From an uncultured Clostridia bacterium (GTDB lineage Bacteria; Bacillota; Clostridia; Christensenellales; UBA1242), in assembly GCA_947584775.1 (NCBI GenBank), contig CANPWT010000002.1, positions 1 to 33,214 of the forward strand: DNA of 33,214 nt. Reading direction: 5' to 3'. The translations under genes were made by a program, and so were the position numbers. Under the pieces are notes generated by a model. The model was not told where the DNA came from and searched no databases. It worked only from the letters and a program-made list of their open reading frames with translations. Numbering within the stretch: position 1 is the stretch's first letter; every line of letters begins with the position of its first letter. This document shows positions 990 through 32,683 of this stretch, one piece after another.

Positions 990-3900
990 ATGCCGGTTAA
1001 AAGAGTAAAAAAATTTTTAATTATTTTAACGTTTTGCTTGGTGGTAGCGTTGGCGTCTTTTTCAGTTGTATACGCACTTTCCAAACAAAGTAAAACCGCC
1101 TCACCCGCCCTCCAAGTAAGCGCCGACACATCGAACTTGGCAAAGAATGGTACGGATTATACAATTGACAACAATGGGGCAATTCATATTTATACTGCCC
1201 GCGGCTTAAATTGGTTTAGATGCCAAGTTAATGGCCAGAATGAAGAAAATAACTCATTTACACATAAATGGGGTTTGGGAGGAATGTTTGAATCTTTTAA
1301 TGATTTGCATTATAATGGTGCCACTGTTTATCTTGAAAACGATATTGATTTAAAAGATTATTCCAATTGGACACCGATAGGTTATTACAATTACGTAAGT
1401 GATGGAAGTACATTGGCTAATTATGGCAGAGTAAATGATAGAGCATTCCGTGGGACTTTTGACGGGCAAGGGCATACTATTTACAATTTAAAAATGCAAA
1501 ACAAAACAGATGATAATAATTTTGATAACAAAGGTGAGGTTGTTGGCTTATTCGGTTTAGTGGCGGGTGGTAATGCCGTTATAAAAAATTTGTGTTTAAA
1601 TGGTGTATCAATAAAACTTGAAGGAATGACGGCCACAAGTGTTGGAACATTGGTTGGGAATGCGGGAGAATTTTTGAAAATCGATAAGCTGGGAGGACAC
1701 AGTTATAATAATAATGAGCAGATAACAATAGAGAATTGCATGGTTTTAAATGCGAACATAAACGTAACCGGTCCATCAAATAGTTCTGATGTTGTAGCGT
1801 GCGGAGGGCTTATTGGGACTGCTGATGACCAGCTAACAATCAAAAATTGTGCGGTTCAAGCAGAAATAACTAATAAAGGATCAGAAGATCGTCATGCTAG
1901 AGGATTGTTAGGATATGTGTATTGTTCTTATTCATACACAGAAGCCCCAGAAGGTTTGACTTCGACCGCAACTTATGGTTTTGGTAAGATAATAATGCAA
2001 GATTGTTATTTTAAAGGTGGGTTAAAAGTCAATGACAATCTTCAAAAAGACAACACACAAGGCTTAAATATTCCTACTGCACTCTCAACTTCTTTGCATT
2101 ATGAATTTGTGCTTGGTACAGCAACATATGAAAATGTCTACATCAACGACAATCGCAACACGGTAATTGATCACTTTGAAAAACTTGGTTCAATTAGCGG
2201 AGGTGCTGGAACTACTCGCTGGAAAGCATATGGGTACATTGATAATGATCCGTGGGGTAATGGATACCCTATTTTAGATCAATTTGTAAATCCAAAATCT
2301 TATGTTTATTTTGGGGTGGATGATGCTGGTGACGTGTTATTAACTATTACAGGAAAAGATATTTATAATAGCCAAAAAACATATGTTAACAAAAGCAGTA
2401 ATGTAACTTTAGCCTATTATATGCCTGTTGACCTTTACACAAAAGGTAGTGACGGCGTCATGAAAATCGATGCAAGTAAAAATTTAATTTATAATGATGC
2501 ATTATCGCCTTGTTTTAGAAGTTCTGAGAAATCTTCTTCAATTACAATATCAATAATTGGCTATGAAATAACATTTGAATGTGCAGAAGAAAACAAATAT
2601 TTAGAATTACAGTTAATCAAGGATCGTGATGATAAATATACGATAACTGCAACAAAAAAACAAGCACCAATTTCAACTATTAGATTATCAGTAACTGACA
2701 CATATTATCCAAAAGGCTTAAGTTTTAGATATAAAGATAATTCATATGAATGCAGTAATCAAGCGTTTGTTTTGAGTGGCCTTTCTATTCCTAATGAATT
2801 CTCTTTATCATATTCAAAAAACGGAGCCGATATTAGTCAATTTATTCCTTGTCATGCTAGATTAGATTGGAACGATGAAAAAAATGGACAAGAGAGTGTT
2901 AGCTTATATCAAAGCGATGGTCGATATAGGTTAAAAAAAGTTATAATAAAAGGCGGCCCTACTTTCGACACGGCTAATAGTAACAGAGATTGGGATTCTG
3001 CTTCATTTCAGTATAGTGAATCGGAAATTTTAGAAATCCAATTTGATATAGAACCCGTTTATACATACATAACTTTCAGTGTGGGTCTTTTAACAAATGG
3101 TCAAATATATCCAGGATATAATAATGTTGCAGTGAACGAATTTATTCAAAGAGAGTTTTATTTAAATGGTGTTAAGCAGAACGAAATCTTGGGCGCGGTT
3201 GGATTGGTTAATGATTACGATACCATTGAAATCAACAAAGATGGTAGTGCAGTCATATTATCTAACATCATCAAAGATAATAAGCGTTATACATTAAACA
3301 TAACAATAAACAAAAATGTTAAAGGTTTTAGGTTTATTAAATGGCAACGTGGCGATTTGTCAAACGATTTTTACGATTTAGAAAACGATGCCGACTATGG
3401 CTATGACAATATTATGTATTCAGACATGGACGATCTTTATTATATAAATATGCGCGCTGTTTTTCAGCCGGTGAATTACTCAGTTGGGTTGGCATATTCG
3501 GCGAATGCGGAAGGTGTAATTAGGGCGACCAATGTTCAATATAATATTTTATCGGGGGCGAATTTAACTGACTATGCGCCAAAAACCGATTCAGAAATTT
3601 TAACTGACGCAGAAAAGAGTTATTTATCATCACGAAGTTTGGAATTTTCATCCTTTATAATTGACACTGCAAAAATAGATGCAGATCTTTATAATTGCAG
3701 TTTTAATGCGGGAGATAAAAAATTTATAATTGACAGTAAAAACAATGACAATGTTCACATTATTTTTGGCTATAATAAATTTTTGCAATATGTTGACAAT
3801 GGGGACACATACTATTACGTTTATGTAGACAAAATTTACCCAGGCTCGTATGGTGATTACAAGAAATTTACTTCATTTTTAGAATTTGATACATGGGATA

Positions 3901-6900
3901 ATGGTTGGGATTTTCCTGAACCTATTACAAATTTGCCTGACAATATGAGTTTAAAAATTAACAGCGGATCTTATCACAACCTTACCGTTGATAACGAAAA
4001 GTTAAGTTTTACTTATTACAATAATACATTGTGCGAAGATGTTATATACTTTAATTCTGATGAGTTTAATTCATTGATTGAAGATCAAAATGGTTATATT
4101 TTTAATCGATATCTCATAAAAAACAATCCTTATCAATATTATCAATTTAGGAGGTCGGGGAACAGCGTCCTTTTAAACATTAATTGCCAACAAAATACTA
4201 CTCTTACTATAACAGTAACATTAAAGTATACCATTTCTGGCACATTAGAATTTAATGATACTTATGAACTAATAGAACGGGCAATCGCTACCAAATATTA
4301 TGTAATTTCGAGACCGGAGGGGTGGTTCTTGCCAATGGGAAAAGATGCTCTCGACTATGATAGTTGGGATCTCCCAATGCTGAAAGATGCGCCTATTTAT
4401 GCGCGTTTTGCCCCTGTTTACGACATTAAAATTACCAATGGCACGGCAGATTATTTTGACGGGCTAGATAATGAGGCAGAGTTGCAAGGCGTTGGTGGCG
4501 GAGTGTTAAACGGCAACTCGGACGATGTCACAATAAGCCAAGATGGCGTTACAATTAAAGTTCAAGATAGCGGTAACTATATGTATCCGTTTATGACAAG
4601 TTATTACGCCGAAAATTTAACGGATGATAACGGGCGGGCTATAAAGTTTTTAGACATGGCGTCCATTGGAGATGCATCCCTAATTTCATACATTACGCCG
4701 TTAAGTTTTTACAAGTTAAATGATTTTAGCGCTAACATCTCGGCGGCCAGCAACAAAGGTTATTATTATGTGTATAACTATGGGCATCAAATTTCGGCTT
4801 GGGTAATTAAAATTACCATACCAACAAAGGGCTCGCAGGAGGTTATCACAAAATATTTAACCGCGGAAACGGACGGTGACGATGGAAACGGACCAATTAT
4901 TTGGAGTTTAAAAGAAGTTCAAAACGGGGTGATACCTTATACTCCTATTGGCTTGTTAACCGGCAGCAACCTGGAAAACCTTGGTTTAATAACCGAATTT
5001 GTGGATTTAATTGTTAAAAACGGCAACACGGGGGACATTGGCATTGAGATGTATCCATTGTGGGAAAATGTTAGCCTTGGCGTAACGGGCGAGGAAGATA
5101 TTAACTTTACCAACACAAACGATGGCGTTATAACTTATGGTGGCGATTATGAGTTAAACGGCGGAACGGTTGAAGCAGGCAAATCTTTGGCGCATTATGT
5201 TTTAGAGGATTCAACCTACAAAGACGGCGAGGAACTAGACGCTAATTCTAAAATTGCTGTTAAAAAAGCAAAATGGAACTACACCTATTTTAACAAAGAC
5301 GATTTCACACTAGAATTTACCGATGAGGGCAAAGTAATTTACAACATTGCGTTGCGCCCTGTTAATTTGGACATGTTGTTCCGCGTTCAATTAAACCTTA
5401 ATGGCGGCGAGGAATTAACAAGCGAAAATTATGTAACTAAAGCAGAAGTTCCAGATGCTAGAAAGATAAAAACAAGCGTTGCGTGGGGCATGGCTGATTA
5501 TTATGACGGTTGGGTAGAACGCTATTTAGAAGAGTATAAATTTAAATTTAATTATTTTGTTAATTGCATAACAAACAAAGTGGATATCTATCCTTTTGAC
5601 AATAATTTTAATTTGCGAACGCTATATATTACAACCCAAGGGGAATATTTCATCTATTTAGCAAACAACCAAACCCCAATTTTACCGGTGTTTAGCAAAA
5701 ACGGCTTCGATTTGATTGCATATTCAAGCGATAATGACCGCGATGACTATAAAGAGGTTGTTTACACAACAAGTTTGTATAAAGCGGAAGAGCACGAAGC
5801 GTCTGTTAGAGAATTAGCCAAAGGTTTATTAAAACCTATGGAAAAGTTTAGCATCTCGTACGAGCAAAGTGCAGACACTATTATGTTTACCGCGGAGTAT
5901 TATAGGCAATTTTACTATTTGCAAGTTGACACCTTGTTTGAAAATGCATCTGGCCTGTATGGCTATGCAATTATAAAAGTTGACGATAATTTAGACAATA
6001 CTTTAGATGCAAATTACCTTGCAATTTATTCTACCGCCAACCGGGCTATGTATTATTCAAAAGTGGGTTCAGACCAACTTTCTGATATATTTGTAAACAA
6101 CAAATTTACCGGCACAAAAGTGGACAATATTAAAGTTTACAACAACAGCGTTGTAACAATCACCGCTTGCGACCAAAGTTCGTATCCTGAACTATTTAGT
6201 TCGTCCAATTATGACAACATGATTGGTTATAGGTTCGATAATTTTGTTATATCTCATGAAATTTTAGACAATAATCCGGACATTTACATTGCTGAATACA
6301 ATATTCAGGAATTGCCGCTAAAAACGGGGGATGTTATTGCAGTTGAACTTAATTACGTTAAAATAACTTACACATTTACCCTGGCGTTGGTGGACGAGGC
6401 GGCGGGCAGCCTAAACTATATTTACAACGGAATTACAAGCGCCAATTTTGATACGGCCGACATAACCCTAACAGTGGGCGATGTTTACTTAATAACCTAC
6501 AACGCAGAGTTGGGCTACGAGTTTAGCGAAGACGCATTTGTTTTAAATGTTGGCGGGCAACAAGTTGTTCTTAAACGCTACAGCGAAAGCATAAATTATG
6601 TCCGCACGCGCGATAGCGTTATTGATAGCGATAAAGTTTACTACGCTTTAATTAATGGCGTTTACACAAAAGTTAACAAGCCAATATCCGCCAACTTGGC
6701 CGATTATTACGAGGTTAGCAGCATAAGCCAAAACTACATTTTAACTTTAAACGGGCAATTTTTAAAGGATAACTATTATTCAATTGCAGATACTGCCTAT
6801 ACAACAAAAAATGCAACCGCTGGCAAACTTGATGTTAACACTCAAAAAATCGAATTTGGCTATTTATTAAAAGTGTACGATTCGGGCAACAGGGTTTGGC

Positions 6901-9239
6901 TTCCAACCAGGGAGTTGGGGGGCAACAATGATACGCGCGCAACCTTTGTGGTGGGCGACCGAATTGATATAATTAATGCATTTACTTGCTATGACGACAT
7001 GTATATCTATAACGACAGCGAAAACAACAAATATGCAATACTTACAAGTTACGCTTACAATATTTACGACCCTCAAAGCAGCAGCCTTTTATCTAAAACC
7101 TATAACTTCCCGCAAATAGAAGTGCCTGTGGGTAAATATGAAGTAAGCATACAAAATTTGTATTACATGGTTAAATCGAACTACAATCAAATTGTGTTGC
7201 CATCGTCACGAACATTTTACATGGTTTTAAATGTTAGGGAGTTATTTAAAATTAACTTAGAACTTGCAACAAACAACCCTGATTATGACAGTATTGGCAA
7301 CAAAACCCTTAGCGTTTACAATGTGGATAACCTGTTGCAAGAAAACCGCAAAACAGCAACCAAAATTAATGACGAAATAAAATATTATAACGGCAGCACG
7401 CTAGGCGGCAGAGAGGTTAAAACCAACTATATTTACACCTACTTTGGCTTGTACAACAACATCTCTTACACGCTGGACGAAACATTCTTTAATTCTGCAA
7501 CACTAAGTTTAAATAATGGCGAAACTGACTTTGAATTGGCAAGCAATCAAGTTGCGCTTTCCAACAACTTAACATTTGGCCTAGATGCAGTTTCGTTCGG
7601 GGAAAAACCGCGCGCAACTATCATAAAAGCAACCTTTATTGCCAAGCCTTTAACTGCTAAAATAAATTACACATTAACGGACGATAAAGGCACGCGTTCC
7701 ACCACAAATTTAAGCGAATTATCGGGCGTGTTAGATAAATTTGAACTAACCCCTAATGAGGAAATTTATATTAACACCACATTAAATATTAGTTACGCGT
7801 TAAATGTGGACTATGTTATGAAAGTGGAAATTGTGGATGCGGGCGAGGACGGGCAAAACACCGTATTCAACATAGATGCAGAATTAAACAGCGAGGATTT
7901 ATCTTACACGGTAAGCGCAAACAATTATTTGGCAAATAATGTAATAATCAATGTGGAAATAAGCAAAAAGAACAACGAAAACATAATCTTCCATGTTGTA
8001 GATAAATCTAGCAACGAAGTTATTAATCAATTTGGCGAGTTCGAACTAATTATTAATGGCGTAAAAACAGAATTTGCACAAAATAACAGTTACAACATTG
8101 TTGAATCTAGAAAAGTGGAATTGAACATAATTTCAGTGGAAAACGGCTATGTTTACGCCGGCTACAATTTTAAGGGCAGACATTATGACGATGAAATTAC
8201 AATAGAATCGTTTAGCCAAAGCGCTAATGCGGGCAACTATTACATTTTGCTTGAAAAATTGCCGGTTAACATAAGTTTGCAGTTGGATGAAAACCAAGCG
8301 CAAGAATATCAATTGTTTACTACTAACAATAGTTCTACAATCGACCAATCATCTCACACAATAACTTCCGCTCGCCTTGGCGATACAATAACCTTAGATA
8401 ACAGTTTGGTGGTTGGTGAAAGGCTTATAAATCAAGTGTATATTGACGGCAAAAATGTTGAACACAATCTAACAAAAGAGTTCACAATAACAAGCGAATT
8501 GCTAGCCGATTGTTATGACGAGCAAAATTCGTGCTACAATTTAAAAATTAAACTTTACACAACTAAAATTTATAAATTGGATGTGCAAATAGATGCGGGC
8601 GAAGAATTTATTAACAGTTTAACAACAGACCCTAACAATATGTTAAATGATAAGTTTGTCTATTTTGACCAAGGCACAAACATAAACTTAAAAATAACTT
8701 CAAAAATTGCCGGCAAATATAACATAACAATCCGCTATTTTGCTTCTGGGGAAGAGCAAGTTATTTCAGGCGATGAAATTGATGAAAATATAACACTTAA
8801 TTCCGATATTGTAGTGCACGTGTTGGCTGAAAGAAAAAGTTACGATGTAAATATATTGGAAAACCATTTCGACACAATGAACCAACTTGAAACCAACTCG
8901 CCAGTCCAGGCCGAAAACGCAGTTAATAATTTAACTACCACACAAAATCGCTTTGGCTTGGAAAATGAGTTGTCGGTTGCTCTCCGCTCAACCGATTACA
9001 ATTTGCGTCAATTAGTGTTCAGTTCAGAGGATGCAGAATTTACATTAACCTTTATTAACGACAAAATTTCAGTTTACAGCGAAGAGGATTACACCTTTAA
9101 AGATAATGTAATTAAAATTAACGGTTTAACTTTTGCTTTAAGCATGGATGGCGATAAACTTACAATTAATTACACTGTAACTTGCGAGGTTAACATAACT
9201 GTAAATTATATTTCAATTAAGGCTATAACCGATAAATAA
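990..9239 (+). CDS. Giant secreted or surface protein (2749 aa). It has an N-terminal signal peptide, a GLUG-motif beta-helix-like region, and then many divergent beta-rich modules.
   Basis: SD GGGGG lies 6 nt upstream of the ATG. The N-terminus MPVKRVKKFLIILTFCLVVALASFSVVYA reads as a signal sequence. FRGTFDGQGHTIYNL..VGLFGLVAGG..VGTLVGN..CGGLIGT matches the GLUG/IgA-protease-type repeat pattern. Recurrent G[YF]xF motifs are present (KGFRFIKW, LGYEFSEDAF, IGYRFDNF). No LPXTG or C-terminal TM segment. Confidence 0.9.
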   Translation: MPVKRVKKFLIILTFCLVVALASFSVVYALSKQSKTASPALQVSADTSNLAKNGTDYTIDNNGAIHIYTARGLNWFRCQVNGQNEENNSFTHKWGLGGMFESFNDLHYNGATVYLENDIDLKDYSNWTPIGYYNYVSDGSTLANYGRVNDRAFRGTFDGQGHTIYNLKMQNKTDDNNFDNKGEVVGLFGLVAGGNAVIKNLCLNGVSIKLEGMTATSVGTLVGNAGEFLKIDKLGGHSYNNNEQITIENCMVLNANINVTGPSNSSDVVACGGLIGTADDQLTIKNCAVQAEITNKGSEDRHARGLLGYVYCSYSYTEAPEGLTSTATYGFGKIIMQDCYFKGGLKVNDNLQKDNTQGLNIPTALSTSLHYEFVLGTATYENVYINDNRNTVIDHFEKLGSISGGAGTTRWKAYGYIDNDPWGNGYPILDQFVNPKSYVYFGVDDAGDVLLTITGKDIYNSQKTYVNKSSNVTLAYYMPVDLYTKGSDGVMKIDASKNLIYNDALSPCFRSSEKSSSITISIIGYEITFECAEENKYLELQLIKDRDDKYTITATKKQAPISTIRLSVTDTYYPKGLSFRYKDNSYECSNQAFVLSGLSIPNEFSLSYSKNGADISQFIPCHARLDWNDEKNGQESVSLYQSDGRYRLKKVIIKGGPTFDTANSNRDWDSASFQYSESEILEIQFDIEPVYTYITFSVGLLTNGQIYPGYNNVAVNEFIQREFYLNGVKQNEILGAVGLVNDYDTIEINKDGSAVILSNIIKDNKRYTLNITINKNVKGFRFIKWQRGDLSNDFYDLENDADYGYDNIMYSDMDDLYYINMRAVFQPVNYSVGLAYSANAEGVIRATNVQYNILSGANLTDYAPKTDSEILTDAEKSYLSSRSLEFSSFIIDTAKIDADLYNCSFNAGDKKFIIDSKNNDNVHIIFGYNKFLQYVDNGDTYYYVYVDKIYPGSYGDYKKFTSFLEFDTWDNGWDFPEPITNLPDNMSLKINSGSYHNLTVDNEKLSFTYYNNTLCEDVIYFNSDEFNSLIEDQNGYIFNRYLIKNNPYQYYQFRRSGNSVLLNINCQQNTTLTITVTLKYTISGTLEFNDTYELIERAIATKYYVISRPEGWFLPMGKDALDYDSWDLPMLKDAPIYARFAPVYDIKITNGTADYFDGLDNEAELQGVGGGVLNGNSDDVTISQDGVTIKVQDSGNYMYPFMTSYYAENLTDDNGRAIKFLDMASIGDASLISYITPLSFYKLNDFSANISAASNKGYYYVYNYGHQISAWVIKITIPTKGSQEVITKYLTAETDGDDGNGPIIWSLKEVQNGVIPYTPIGLLTGSNLENLGLITEFVDLIVKNGNTGDIGIEMYPLWENVSLGVTGEEDINFTNTNDGVITYGGDYELNGGTVEAGKSLAHYVLEDSTYKDGEELDANSKIAVKKAKWNYTYFNKDDFTLEFTDEGKVIYNIALRPVNLDMLFRVQLNLNGGEELTSENYVTKAEVPDARKIKTSVAWGMADYYDGWVERYLEEYKFKFNYFVNCITNKVDIYPFDNNFNLRTLYITTQGEYFIYLANNQTPILPVFSKNGFDLIAYSSDNDRDDYKEVVYTTSLYKAEEHEASVRELAKGLLKPMEKFSISYEQSADTIMFTAEYYRQFYYLQVDTLFENASGLYGYAIIKVDDNLDNTLDANYLAIYSTANRAMYYSKVGSDQLSDIFVNNKFTGTKVDNIKVYNNSVVTITACDQSSYPELFSSSNYDNMIGYRFDNFVISHEILDNNPDIYIAEYNIQELPLKTGDVIAVELNYVKITYTFTLALVDEAAGSLNYIYNGITSANFDTADITLTVGDVYLITYNAELGYEFSEDAFVLNVGGQQVVLKRYSESINYVRTRDSVIDSDKVYYALINGVYTKVNKPISANLADYYEVSSISQNYILTLNGQFLKDNYYSIADTAYTTKNATAGKLDVNTQKIEFGYLLKVYDSGNRVWLPTRELGGNNDTRATFVVGDRIDIINAFTCYDDMYIYNDSENNKYAILTSYAYNIYDPQSSSLLSKTYNFPQIEVPVGKYEVSIQNLYYMVKSNYNQIVLPSSRTFYMVLNVRELFKINLELATNNPDYDSIGNKTLSVYNVDNLLQENRKTATKINDEIKYYNGSTLGGREVKTNYIYTYFGLYNNISYTLDETFFNSATLSLNNGETDFELASNQVALSNNLTFGLDAVSFGEKPRATIIKATFIAKPLTAKINYTLTDDKGTRSTTNLSELSGVLDKFELTPNEEIYINTTLNISYALNVDYVMKVEIVDAGEDGQNTVFNIDAELNSEDLSYTVSANNYLANNVIINVEISKKNNENIIFHVVDKSSNEVINQFGEFELIINGVKTEFAQNNSYNIVESRKVELNIISVENGYVYAGYNFKGRHYDDEITIESFSQSANAGNYYILLEKLPVNISLQLDENQAQEYQLFTTNNSSTIDQSSHTITSARLGDTITLDNSLVVGERLINQVYIDGKNVEHNLTKEFTITSELLADCYDEQNSCYNLKIKLYTTKIYKLDVQIDAGEEFINSLTTDPNNMLNDKFVYFDQGTNINLKITSKIAGKYNITIRYFASGEEQVISGDEIDENITLNSDIVVHVLAERKSYDVNILENHFDTMNQLETNSPVQAENAVNNLTTTQNRFGLENELSVALRSTDYNLRQLVFSSEDAEFTLTFINDKISVYSEEDYTFKDNVIKINGLTFALSMDGDKLTINYTVTCEVNITVNYISIKAITDK

Positions 9240-17531: not shown

Positions 17532-17837
17532 TCAGTTTTCTAAATAGACAATTTTTTTGCAAAGCGTTTGCGCATATTTTATTTCAGATTTTGTGCTTTC
17601 GCCAATATATCCACCTTTGTTTATAACAAAAATTTCATCAGATATTTCAATTTTGCGTTTGTGTATTTTACTTAATAAATTTTTTATTTCTGCGGGAACG
17701 CTCGTTTTTTCAAATTCTTTTAAAAATAGCGGAGTTAAAACAACATTGCCCGCAATTGTTAATTTCAAGCAAATTTTTTCAAACTCATCCCTAAATTTTA
17801 TACTTCCACATAAAGTTATTATTTTTAATCTTTCCAT
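17532..17837 (-). CDS. Small Rossmann-like protein resembling the nucleoside 2-deoxyribosyltransferase-like superfamily
   Basis: The pattern IITLCGSIKF .. H..KI..SD.IFVIN..GYIGESTKSEIKYA is typical of that fold. The assignment is from memory of family patterns only. Confidence 0.55.
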   Translation of the reverse strand: MERLKIITLCGSIKFRDEFEKICLKLTIAGNVVLTPLFLKEFEKTSVPAEIKNLLSKIHKRKIEISDEIFVINKGGYIGESTKSEIKYAQTLCKKIVYLEN

Positions 17838-17843
17838 ATTTTT

Positions 17844-17871
17844 ATATTAACAAATAAACCACAAAATTCAA
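17844..17871 (-). promoter_or_regulatory. Promoter with an extended -10 placed 6 nt upstream of the ATG at 17837; candidate leaderless start
   Basis: On the minus strand: TTGAAT, 16 nt, TGtTAATAT, AAAAAT, ATG. Confidence 0.5.
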
Positions 17872-17924
17872 AATAGTTTACAACCACTCGCTAAATACTA
17901 CAACTTAAAATTTTTGTCAACCTA

Positions 17925-17953
17925 TTGATTTTTTTAAGATTATGTGATATAAT
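17925..17953 (+). promoter_or_regulatory. Promoter of the tyrS leader transcript
   Basis: TTGATT (17925..17930), a 17-nt spacer containing TGa, then TATAAT (17948..17953). Confidence 0.6.
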
Positions 17954-17973
17954 AATTGTGCATTGAGGGAATT

Positions 17974-18021
17974 ATGAAAAAATTATTTGCAAACACTTCA
18001 TATTATTACTACTACAAATAG
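17974..18021 (+). CDS. Tyr-rich leader peptide MKKLFANTSYYYYYK (15 aa)
   Basis: SD GAGGGA (17965..17970). Five consecutive Tyr codons TAT TAT TAC TAC TAC at 18001..18015, stop TAG at 18019. Located 237 nt upstream of tyrS. Confidence 0.75.
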   Translation: MKKLFANTSYYYYYK

Positions 18022-18022
18022 A

Positions 18023-18088
18023 TCGCTATATGTAGGAGTTTTATTTTGCAAATAATAAAAATTTTATAAAACATCTGCCATATAGCGA
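18023..18088 (+). promoter_or_regulatory. Candidate antiterminator helix of the tyrS attenuator
   Basis: TCGCTATATG (18023..18032) is perfectly complementary to CATATAGCGA (18079..18088). That segment overlaps the 5' arm of terminator 1. Confidence 0.6.
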
Positions 18089-18109
18089 ATTTGCTTGTGG
18101 CAGTTTTTT
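18075..18109 (+). terminator. Attenuator terminator 1
   Basis: CTGCCATA (18075..18082) pairs with TGTGGCAG (18096..18103) with one G-U pair. An inner AGC/GCT pairing follows, then T6 at 18104..18109. Confidence 0.7.
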
Positions 18110-18115
18110 ATTTCT

Positions 18116-18153
18116 ATCTGTCATGAGCATTAAAACTTATGGCAGATTTTTTT
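18116..18153 (+). terminator. Attenuator terminator 2
   Basis: ATCTGTCAT (18116..18124) pairs with ATGGCAGAT (18139..18147), followed by a T-run to 18153. The 3' arm is also perfectly complementary to 18073..18081. Confidence 0.65.
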
Positions 18154-18257
18154 AATAGGAGTTTATATGATTTTATTTATAAAAACATACGCCCTTTGGG
18201 GCGGGAAAATAATTTGAATTTAATTTTGAAAATTGTATAATTAAAAAGGAGAAGAAC

Positions 18258-19493
18258 ATGGAATTCATAGATAATGCTTTTGAGCAATTAGAAAAACGTG
18301 GATTTGTTTTTCAAACCACGCATTTAGAAGAAACGAAAAAAGCCTTAAAATCAGGGCCTGTGACTTTTTACATTGGCATTGATCCTACGGCTGACGATTT
18401 GCATATTGGTCACTTCTTTGGCTTGCAAATGGCAAGAATTTTGCAAGACTGTGGTCACAAGTGTATTGTGCTTGTTGGCGGTGCCACCGCTTTAATTGGC
18501 GATCCGACAAACAAAACTGATATGAGAAAAATGCTTTCAAAAGAAGAAGTTGCACGAAATGCGCGCGAAATTTCAAGTATAATTAAGCGATTTGTGCGTG
18601 TTGACGGCGACAATCCTGCCATTGTTGTTGACAATGCCGATTGGCTTAAACCTATCTCATACATTGATTTTTTAAGAGATGTTGGCGTGCATTTTAATGT
18701 CAACGAAATGCTGTCAAAAGACCTATACAAAAACAGGCTTGCAAAAGGTGGCTTGACCTTTATGGAAATGGGATACATGCTTATGCAATCTTTTGATTTT
18801 GTGCATTTGAACGACAAGTTTGGCTGCACACTTCAAATTGGCGGATCTGACCAATGGGGAAATATTTGCGGTGGAGTTGATTTGTCACGCAAAATGAATT
18901 TTAAGGACGGAACGCCAAGGCCGCTTATGATGGGTCTTACGTGCCCACTTTTGACAAACGCAGACGGAATTAAAATGGGCAAAACAGAGAAAGGAACACT
19001 TTGGGTGTCCAGAGAAAAGACTTCTGCATTTGAATTCTTTCAACACTTTGTTAACTGCTTGGACGCAGATGTTGAAAGGCTGTTAAGATTTTTTACAAAG
19101 ATTGATGTTGAAGAAATTCAAAAAATGTGCCGTGAAGATATTGTGAGCGCAAAAAAGCGTATGGCTTTTGAAGTGACAAAACTTGTGCATGGGCAGGAAG
19201 AAGCCTTAAAAGCACAACAAGCAGCAATATCTTTGTTTGAAAACAAAAATACAACTGACAATATGCCAACAGAAACCATTTCACTAACAGGTGAAGTGAG
19301 CATAATAGATTTTCTTTCAAGTTTATCAATAATAAAATCAAAGTCCGAGGCACGCCGCCTGATTGAACAAGGCGGGATTATTATTGACAACGAAAAAAAG
19401 ACCGATTTGAACGAGATTTTAAATCTAAATAATAAAAAAGAATTTATTGTTAAAAAAGGCAAAAAGACCTTTGTTAAAGTGCAAATAAAATAA
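18258..19493 (+). CDS. tyrS: Tyrosyl-tRNA synthetase
   Basis: SD AGGAG. HIGH motif (LHIGH), KMSKS-type KMGKT, and a C-terminal S4 domain (SKSEARRLIEQGG). Confidence 0.95.
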   Translation: MEFIDNAFEQLEKRGFVFQTTHLEETKKALKSGPVTFYIGIDPTADDLHIGHFFGLQMARILQDCGHKCIVLVGGATALIGDPTNKTDMRKMLSKEEVARNAREISSIIKRFVRVDGDNPAIVVDNADWLKPISYIDFLRDVGVHFNVNEMLSKDLYKNRLAKGGLTFMEMGYMLMQSFDFVHLNDKFGCTLQIGGSDQWGNICGGVDLSRKMNFKDGTPRPLMMGLTCPLLTNADGIKMGKTEKGTLWVSREKTSAFEFFQHFVNCLDADVERLLRFFTKIDVEEIQKMCREDIVSAKKRMAFEVTKLVHGQEEALKAQQAAISLFENKNTTDNMPTETISLTGEVSIIDFLSSLSIIKSKSEARRLIEQGGIIIDNEKKTDLNEILNLNNKKEFIVKKGKKTFVKVQIK

Positions 19494-20977: not shown

Positions 20978-21068
20978 TGGCGGAGAGTGAGGGATTTGAA
21001 CCCTCGCGCGCATTGCTACGCCTACATCCTTAGCAGGGACGCCTCTTCGACCTCTTGAGTAACTCTCC
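20978..21068 (-). tRNA. tRNA-Ser (anticodon GCU), class II with a long variable arm, CCA encoded
   Basis: Reverse complement reads GGAGAGT TA CTCAAGAGGTCGAAGAG G CGTCC CTGCTAA GGATG TAGGCGTAGCAATGCGCGC GAGGG TTCAAAT CCCTC ACTCTCC G CCA. Cloverleaf folded by hand. Confidence 0.93.
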
Positions 21069-32290: not shown

Positions 32291-32683
32291 GTGGAAGAAA
32301 AAAATATTAATCCAAGTTATTATAAAAACGCGTTAACTTTGTCCTTTTTAGGCGATGCTGTTTTTACGCTTAAAGTTAGGGAATATTTGGTTAAAAATAG
32401 CAACAACAAACTAAATATGCTAAACAAAACGGCAAATTCCATTGTTTGCGCAACAAACCAGGCGCAAATTATGTTGGGCTTAAAAGGGGACTTAGATGAG
32501 GACGAGTTAGACATTGTTACCCGAGCAAGGAACAGCCACACAAACAACAAAGCAAAGCACAGCACCTTGCAAGAGTATAACTTAGCAACACAGTTTGAAG
32601 CGCTTGTTGGCTATTGGTATTTAACCGGCAACACGCAAAAAATAGACGCCATGTTTAAAACTTGGGTGGAGGAAAGGCTATGA
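32291..32683 (+). CDS. mrnC: Mini-ribonuclease III
   Basis: NALTLSFLGDAVF (RNase III-like signature), ..TRARN..K.. and FEALVGYWYL resemble B. subtilis MrnC (YazC). Conserved synteny with rlmB downstream. Confidence 0.85.
   Translation: MEEKNINPSYYKNALTLSFLGDAVFTLKVREYLVKNSNNKLNMLNKTANSIVCATNQAQIMLGLKGDLDEDELDIVTRARNSHTNNKAKHSTLQEYNLATQFEALVGYWYLTGNTQKIDAMFKTWVEERL

Follow-up and report, generated by a model that had tools for sequence, protein, structure and literature searches.

In Bacillota, T-boxes are seen as controlling aminoacyl-tRNA synthetase genes almost universally, and tyrS, which encodes tyrosyl-tRNA synthetase, is the textbook case. How, then, is tyrS controlled in an uncultured Clostridia bacterium in which the gene is preceded by a short open reading frame (sORF) with a run of Tyr codons? 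We addressed this question in a stretch of 33,214 nucleotides (nt) of contig CANPWT010000002.1, called the window throughout. An earlier note, made from the letters alone, had described mutually exclusive hairpins behind this leader peptide and had read them as ribosome-mediated attenuation in place of a T-box. The observation is correct and lies far beyond chance. Judged by its sequence, the element is an attenuator of the classical type with an unusual two-terminator design. We conclude that it very probably controls tyrS by ribosome-mediated attenuation of transcription, sensing charged tRNA-Tyr. Its elements are the following.

17925..17953, plus strand: putative promoter P1, TTGATT (17925-17930), 17 nt, TATAAT (17948-17953), with an extended -10 element, TGaTATAAT, whose TG lies at 17945-46
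17965..17970, plus strand: Shine-Dalgarno sequence (SD) of sORF1, GAGGGA
17974..18021, plus strand: sORF1, leader peptide MKKLFANTSYYYYYK and stop; 15 sense codons, with five consecutive Tyr codons at 18001-18015
17982..17993, plus strand: 5' arm of helix P0, sORF1 codons 3-7, ATTATTTGCAAA; partner 18045-18056
18008..18021, plus strand: region 1, comprising Tyr codons 3-5 plus the Lys and stop codons; its partner is region 2 (18026-18039), forming the anti-antiterminator
18023..18044, plus strand: region 2, pairing with region 1 (via 18026-18039) or with region 3 (antiterminator)
18045..18056, plus strand: 3' arm of P0, TTTGCAAATAAT
18066..18088, plus strand: region 3, pairing with region 2 (antiterminator) or region 4 (terminator T1)
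18093..18109, plus strand: region 4 (18093-18103) and a T6 tract, completing T1; alternative partner, region 5
18116..18128, plus strand: region 5, the 5' arm of terminator T2 or the partner of region 4 (helix 4:5)
18136..18153, plus strand: region 6 and a T7 tract, completing T2
18246..19493, plus strand: tyrS, with SD AAGGAG at 18246-18251 and coding sequence at 18258-19493 (411 amino acids)

The product of the downstream gene matches NCBIfam TIGR00234 with 406.7 bits against a cutoff of 113.8. In a consensus scan, P1 agrees with the consensus at 10 of 12 positions and has the additional TG ahead of its -10 element; it would be a functional promoter. Reading the sequence, we found the promoter, SD, 15-codon frame and Tyr run where the earlier note had placed them. 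Its distance of 237 nt from leader to tyrS start needs a small correction, as 236 nt separate the leader stop codon from the ATG at 18258.

The 298-nt leader folds better than shuffled sequence (z = -5.45, with 0 of 200 shuffles as good). Segment 18023-18032 (TCGCTATATG) proved to be the exact complement of 18079-18088, the 10-nt match on which the note had built its antiterminator. The antiterminator, helix 2:3, is long (-21.1 kcal/mol) and excludes T1 (18075-18086 with 18093-18103, then T6; -15.0 kcal/mol, z = -4.5). The second hairpin and T-run that the note had seen form T2 (18116-18147, then T7; -14.9 kcal/mol, z = -6.0), and the predicted alternative partner of its 3' arm is real: 18138-18147 is the exact complement of 18073-18082. 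Helix 4:5 (-15.3 kcal/mol) excludes T2. Upstream, P0 is a 12-base-pair helix that encloses the 1:2 hairpin, and the two together reach -18.7 kcal/mol (z = -4.9). The whole is a chain with two mutually exclusive states, an off state made of P0, 1:2, 3:4 and 5:6 and an on state made of 2:3 and 4:5. Both states are conserved with covariation (see below). An SD-led short frame, a cluster of cognate codons, an intrinsic terminator, an exclusive antiterminator and the stop-codon geometry are all present, which covers the features by which leader-peptide attenuators are recognized at the sequence level.

Conservation of the Tyr run and of the helices was examined across related tyrS upstream regions, and both are kept. 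TyrRS homologues with 79-93% identity number in the hundreds, in uncultured Clostridia and Christensenellales. A scan of species-representative genomes yielded 46 tyrS loci (numbered with the prefix L), 39 of them with TyrRS at least 70% identical; names among the 39 include Candidatus Onthoplasma, Caccovivens and Caccosoma. Enough upstream sequence, at least 300 nt, was available for 35 of the 39, and sORF1 with its Tyr run is present in 34 of these 35 (TyrRS 70-93% identical). Together with the window, these 34 loci gave 35 leaders for counting.

Exactly 15 sense codons make up sORF1 in 33 of the 35 leaders, and in 34 the ATG has an SD-like motif at most 18 nt away. The peptide contains five Tyr codons in 27 leaders, four in seven and three in one. 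Stop function is kept throughout, by TAG (25), TAA (9) or TGA (1), and GCTRTRTGT of region 2 follows the stop codon after 0-7 nt, with 3 nt the commonest spacing. Substitutions in the Tyr and stop codons are mostly synonymous (TAT/TAC; TAG/TAA/TGA). The TAA variants lose a G-C pair of helix 1:2 and retain the stop codon. Tyr codons 1 and 2, which lie outside any helix, remain Tyr through TAT/TAC changes. These two patterns indicate selection on translation and not on RNA structure alone.

The pairings themselves were tested in a 34-sequence alignment. In the off state, 90.1% of cells are paired and 14 pairs have changed on both sides; none of 500 shuffles reached the observed values, and slid controls gave 20-48% paired cells. 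The on state (2:3, 4:5) likewise has 90.1% of cells paired, with nine pairs changed on both sides, 0 of 500 shuffles reaching the observed values and slid controls at 33-53%. Helix 2:3 is 94% paired across the 34 sequences, and L026 and L043 share a compensatory A-U to G-C change in it (GCTGTATG with CATACAGC). Compensating changes, CTGG...CCAG, also occur in region 1 of L027, and in L017 and L022 regions 3, 4, 5 and 6 are altered in concert. Eight of the 11 pairs of T2 show changes on both sides. RNAalifold, given no structure, recovers 1:2, T1 and T2. The P0 duplex beats shuffles (z < -2) in 29 of 33 loci and has compensating variants (TTTGCAA/TTGCAAA, TTTCGCA/TGCGAAA and TTTACACA/TGTGTAAA). 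P0 also accounts for the apparent conservation of the N-terminal 'LFA' in the peptide.

What we take to be the strongest functional argument is the match between leader codons and operon content. In L027, L137 and L139, tyrS is followed by trpS (TrpRS, TIGR00233, 241 bits against a cutoff of 176.75). The leader peptide of all three (L027 2664-2711; L137; L139) reads M..LTSNLYYWWTY and stop, so that it ends YYWWTY, with Tyr and Trp codons. Region 2 is altered in these leaders, and its pairing with the new codons is preserved. The trpS-linked features lie at L027 2664-2711 and 4270-5313, L137 3974-4396 and 5687-6730, and L139 4079-4481.

Asn leaders were found by scanning DNA of the clade for short frames that contain amino-acid runs and have terminators behind them. 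They have 6-7 Asn codons and stand upstream of a non-discriminating aspS with gatCAB in L016, L127/L128 and L129, and upstream of asnA operons in L027 and L137. The leader regions of Asn operons, one per line, are these.

L016 2904-3240
L027 462-700
L127 5126-5380
L129 9714-9910
L130 40-150, reaching the contig end, where a second short frame (sORF2, described below) is the only part visible
L137 1683-1925

On reading the sequences, we found two terminators with repeated arms in the leaders of L027, L137 and L030 too, and 4:5 pairing is therefore built in. A metagenome scan with the non-discriminating aspS protein returned almost only proteins of 42-47% identity (one of 59%) from other lineages, and no Asn leaders. 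Leaders for further amino acids were absent from about 120 kb of extra flanking DNA around tyrS. Separately, L030 (4292-4544) carries a Thr-rich leader, MKNAVVSQLNITTTTILF and stop, with two terminators that share repeated arms; its downstream gene is cut off at the contig end. The sORF2 of this locus has ATT ACC at the start of an ACCC-GAAA-GGGT hairpin.

How these parts would act together can be drawn from their geometry, taken with what is established for attenuators of the trp, his and pheST types, and it is from these that we infer termination and its dependence on tyrosine. Transcription would start at P1, and a ribosome would translate the 15 codons of sORF1. If Tyr-tRNA is plentiful, the ribosome would reach the stop codon and cover about 12-13 nt beyond it. 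These nucleotides make up the 5' half of region 2, which is the part that pairs with region 3. Given such a footprint, the spacing of stop codon and region 2 would let 3:4 (T1) and 5:6 (T2) form, and transcription would stop at 18109 or 18153. If sORF1 is not translated, P0 and 1:2 would sequester region 2, and transcription would terminate likewise. If Tyr-tRNA is scarce, the ribosome would stall with an early Tyr codon in its A site, covering P0 and region 1 and leaving region 2 free. Region 2 could then pair with region 3, and the freed region 4 with region 5. With T1 and T2 both blocked, the polymerase would continue into tyrS.

The read-through RNA would also carry a second short frame, sORF2, which may serve as a further, post-transcriptional checkpoint. 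Two overlapping elements belong to it.

18157..18217, plus strand: SD2 (AGGAG, 18157-18161) and sORF2 (18167-18217, MILFIKTYALWGGKII and stop), with a single Tyr codon at 18188-18190
18190..18203, plus strand: GC hairpin C-GCCC/TTTG/GGGC-G (-10.3 kcal/mol), the first base pair of which uses the third base of the Tyr codon

This second frame lies directly 3' of T2 behind a strong SD and is presumably translated. An SD, an in-frame ATG and an invariant TAY codon occur in 31 of 34 tyrS loci. In the same proportion of tyrS leaders (31/34), the Tyr codon stands 6-8 codons after the ATG and is followed at once by a GCCC-loop-GGGC hairpin. Among 30 distinct sequences, the closing pair is C-G in 22, T-A in four and T-G in four, with zero mismatches, and the loops measure 4-9 nt. 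The codon changes with the operon here as well: in Asn leaders, AAT or AAC directly precedes a GCC..GGC hairpin in sORF2; in tyrS-trpS loci, sORF2 has two units, TAT with its hairpin and then TGG with a second hairpin; and in L130, upstream of a non-discriminating AspRS gene, an Asn unit is followed by an (Asn)-Asp unit. Elsewhere in about 310 kb of examined sequence, the codon-hairpin signature was not found.

Since the same unit recurs with cognate codons (Tyr; Tyr and Trp; Asn; Asn and Asp) and its signature is confined to such leaders, it could be read as a modular sensor. We suggest tentatively, and with more doubt than confidence, that the pair of cognate codon and abutting hairpin, placed in a mini-ORF past the terminators, may act after transcription to sense aminoacyl-tRNA supply, as a new kind of ribosome-dependent sensor with modular units. 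On the same tentative footing, it may form with the double-terminator leader a lineage-wide substitute for the T-box regulon. One could speculate that a ribosome paused on sORF2 with the hungry codon in its A site would have just unwound the whole stem and would hold the hairpin open. Equally speculative is an alternative in which cleavage at the paused ribosome would make the hairpin the outermost 5' element of the tyrS mRNA, which it would stabilize. Tandem units would, on such a scheme, give OR logic.

More familiar roles for the GC hairpin and sORF2 were considered and rejected. The hairpin has no U tract behind it, as an intrinsic terminator would; for a terminator on the minus strand, the T-tract of that strand is not conserved in relatives. 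Its arm spacing varies from 4 to 9 nt, which suits an RNA hairpin and not a palindromic DNA operator of fixed geometry. As a dispersed repeat it fails too, with just two pattern matches in the window, a number that chance would explain. Translational attenuation of the erm/cat type, in which sORF2 would free a sequestered tyrS SD, does not fit, as that SD is unpaired in the fold; nor does sORF2 pair in any conserved way with the ribosome-binding region of tyrS (median z = +0.5, with one of 23 loci below -2). A programmed frameshift at the unit was discarded because, in the window, both other frames hit a stop within a few codons, short of tyrS. Another GCCC-N5-GGGC hairpin lies at 816-828 of the window, in an unusually GC-rich, structured-looking stretch of about 180 nt (800-980).

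Between sORF2 and the gene lies one more element.

18214..18241, plus strand: promoter-like sequence P2, TTGAAT, 16 nt, TATAAT, directly upstream of the tyrS SD

Relatives keep TTGAAw and TGnTAnAAT at this position. In L137 and L139, there is no space for P2 between the last hairpin and the SD. P2 is probably a second, unattenuated promoter that gives basal tyrS expression.

Could the same hairpins answer to something other than a translating ribosome? They might belong to a highly divergent T-box, or to another riboswitch that binds tRNA or a ligand, with the small frame incidental. The standing of tyrS as a T-box gene in Bacillota would favor this, as would the terminator/antiterminator pair that the leader does contain. 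The earlier note had found no T-box element, and the Rfam check it called for agrees: at the gathering score RF00230 matches nothing in the window, and with the threshold relaxed to E = 10 it still matches nothing in 17700-18400, nor does any other Rfam family match the leader meaningfully. About 350 kb of related loci, with about 40 tyrS genes, four operons of the aspS-gatCAB kind and one argS among them, gave no RF00230 hit either. The scan works, as the same Rfam runs detected tRNAs, a SAM riboswitch and OLE RNA. Four loci of other lineages, chosen as positive controls, also gave no T-box, and its absence is therefore informative only directly upstream of tyrS, aspS and argS. Beyond this, the segment from sORF1 to T1 spans only about 130 nt, is very AT-rich and has no T-box sequence. 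A riboswitch with an incidental frame also sits poorly with the conserved frame, SD, length and stop position of sORF1, with its mostly synonymous changes, and with leader codons that shift with operon content. We consider a hidden T-box or other riboswitch scarcely credible. The phrase 'in place of a T-box' stands as to the absence of the T-box and not as to a replacement event: the nearest outgroup tyrS loci (TyrRS at most 56% identical) have short leaders with neither T-box nor sORF.

Alternatively, the hairpin might be selected by TyrRS itself or by an RNA-binding protein like TRAP, PyrR or a ribosomal protein, and the frame would then not be the sensor. Protein-mediated attenuation is common in Bacillota, as in the rplJL leader (PMC4538822), and an additional factor is compatible with the data. 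However, we saw no repeated protein-binding motif, and a protein would leave without a role what codon sensing predicts, namely a Tyr run that switches to Tyr and Trp or to Asn elsewhere. The conserved spacing between the stop codon and region 2 also speaks against a protein reader, which we judge very unlikely. It is also conceivable that sORF1 is an independent gene for a Tyr-rich micropeptide, or that the attenuated RNA is a trans-acting small RNA, with T1 and T2 ending that gene and tyrS transcribed from P2 alone. The conserved promoter-like P2 directly upstream of tyrS fits such an arrangement, and leader peptides that act in trans are known (peTrpL, PMC7298713). Yet a plain terminator needs neither a conserved, covarying antiterminator nor a 4:5 partner for T2, and the conservation of the peptide N-terminus is accounted for by P0. 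Furthermore, the element is always found upstream of its cognate gene, its codons follow the operon, and L137 and L139 have no room for P2. A separate gene in this position thus seems highly improbable.

Several points weigh against attenuation by a translating ribosome. All the evidence is computational, and every sequence comes from metagenome-assembled genomes or metagenomes. The sequences are highly conserved, so that much of the pairing does not vary and a minority of them supply the covariation. One locus, L033, has no sORF1, and L016, L035, L036 and L130 are without parts of the plan. If active, P2 would bypass the attenuator and may leave only part of tyrS expression under its control. 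The attenuator model also leaves the role of sORF2 and its hairpin unexplained and is in that respect incomplete. On the other side, ribosome-mediated attenuation, the reading first offered in the earlier note, is supported by the conserved SD, ATG, 15-codon length, Tyr run and stop position, by both folds and by codons that track the operon.

Some leaders of the clade have features of their own. In L033 (2850-3000), where sORF1 is missing, there is a different antiterminator/terminator pair (TATCGGCAAT / ATTGCCGATA / CGGCAAT), and the GC hairpin is kept. L036 (2873-3000) has a short leader, MKGLQKYCYNYYCYI and stop, and one GC-rich terminator only 80 nt upstream of tyrS. An extra frame of about 70-75 amino acids, with its own SD, lies between the leader, including a P2-like site, and tyrS in L004 (about 2830-3000) and L034 (about 1880-2050).

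The surroundings of tyrS in the window are mostly ordinary chromosomal genes, among them an AddAB-like nuclease/helicase, an ABC exporter, an ArsR regulator with a P-type ATPase and an LD-carboxypeptidase. A frame of 2749 amino acids without a Pfam domain occupies 990-9239, downstream of the GC-rich, structured-looking stretch at 800-980. A tRNA-Ser(GCT) gene lies on the minus strand at 20978-21068, and 32291-32683 encodes a 130-amino-acid, Mini-III-like protein that consists of an RNase III domain only. In the related loci, Rfam identified an OLE RNA (L037 6963-7224; 132.8 bits, incomplete at the locus end), a SAM riboswitch (L009 2349-2440; 49.5 bits) and, unexpectedly, a hit for HPnc0260, an antisense RNA family of Helicobacter (L025 4423-4555; 67.4 bits against a cutoff of 59).

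Among known systems, the pheST, trp, pheA and his leaders of E. coli share with this one a short frame in which cognate codons form a run, hairpins 1:2, 2:3 and 3:4 that exclude one another in turn, and a stop codon placed for the terminating ribosome to block the antiterminator. The his leader also resembles it in its longer chain of alternating hairpins, and pheST in its target, an aminoacyl-tRNA synthetase (PMC11802643, PMC1262725). In contrast to these leaders, the present one would sense tyrosine and belongs to Clostridia. Its two terminators follow one another and have repeated arms, the second has an antiterminator of its own (4:5), the helix P0 is added over the leader coding region, and a second short frame brings a codon-hairpin unit. 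Unlike them, it matches no Rfam leader family at E up to 10, and none of the proteobacterial leader families (His, Trp, Thr, Leu, Phe) is among the 13 matches at that threshold. The resemblance to curated leader families is, as far as these sequences tell, one of mechanism and not of descent.

Leader peptides at Bacillota genes have precedents. Predictions from 2010 placed His leader peptides, 'replacing T-boxes', at a hisS paralog and at hisZ in bacilli (PMC2965389), and predictions from 2022 placed His-leader attenuators in three lineages of Firmicutes (PMC9413887). The earlier note had called leader-peptide control of tyrS an unusual replacement; we found none described for tyrS, but the idea itself has this precedent. 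The likeness extends to the kind of gene, from a family otherwise controlled by T-boxes, and to the kind of evidence, which is a comparative-genomics prediction in both cases. The differences are the amino acid, the lineage, the target, which here is the essential tyrS itself, and a modular plan that recurs for Tyr, Tyr and Trp, and Asn operons, including the sORF2 unit. As of 2005, no Firmicutes synthetase gene was known with classical attenuation, which Streptomyces trpS and leuS use (PMC1262725). Those two are likewise classical attenuators of Gram-positive synthetase genes (PMC1262725), but they are actinobacterial and GC-rich, with a single terminator and no second short frame.

For the second module, two systems offer possible analogies. 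In B. subtilis thrS, cleavage of the leader leaves a stabilizing 5' hairpin on the synthetase mRNA (Condon et al. 1996, summarised in PMC7913692); that hairpin, however, is the T-box terminator and not one abutting a cognate codon inside a reading frame. The ermB attenuator has two leader frames in series (PMC8274638), but it senses an antibiotic and acts by exposing an SD.

Our literature search found no description of a tyrS or tyrosine-specific leader peptide, and the AroR leader of C. glutamicum (Phe-Tyr-Phe) is reported to be unresponsive to Tyr (PMC11802643). This would be the first tyrosine-specific leader-peptide attenuator of which we found a description. From the sequences, the Tyr and Tyr plus Trp specificities, the two-terminator chain and the spread of one family over several amino-acid operons of one uncultured clade appear to be new, and above all the codon-hairpin unit in the second frame. 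Repeated terminator arms can, it seems, build an attenuator as a two-stage switch. The sORF2 unit is compact and apparently programmable; if it is a sensor, it would be a new way of reading tRNA charging and a useful part for synthetic biology.

The T-box of B. subtilis tyrS (RF00230) acts on the same gene, is induced as charging of tRNA-Tyr falls and chooses between a terminator and an antiterminator. It recognizes uncharged tRNA itself, by means of its specifier codon and T-box sequence, whereas the leader described here has no T-box elements and its proposed reader is the translating ribosome. At tyrS, tyrS-trpS, aspS-gatCAB and asnA, an uncultured low-GC clade of gut Clostridia (Christensenellales-like; Candidatus Onthoplasma, Caccovivens, Caccosoma) appears to use ribosome stalling instead.

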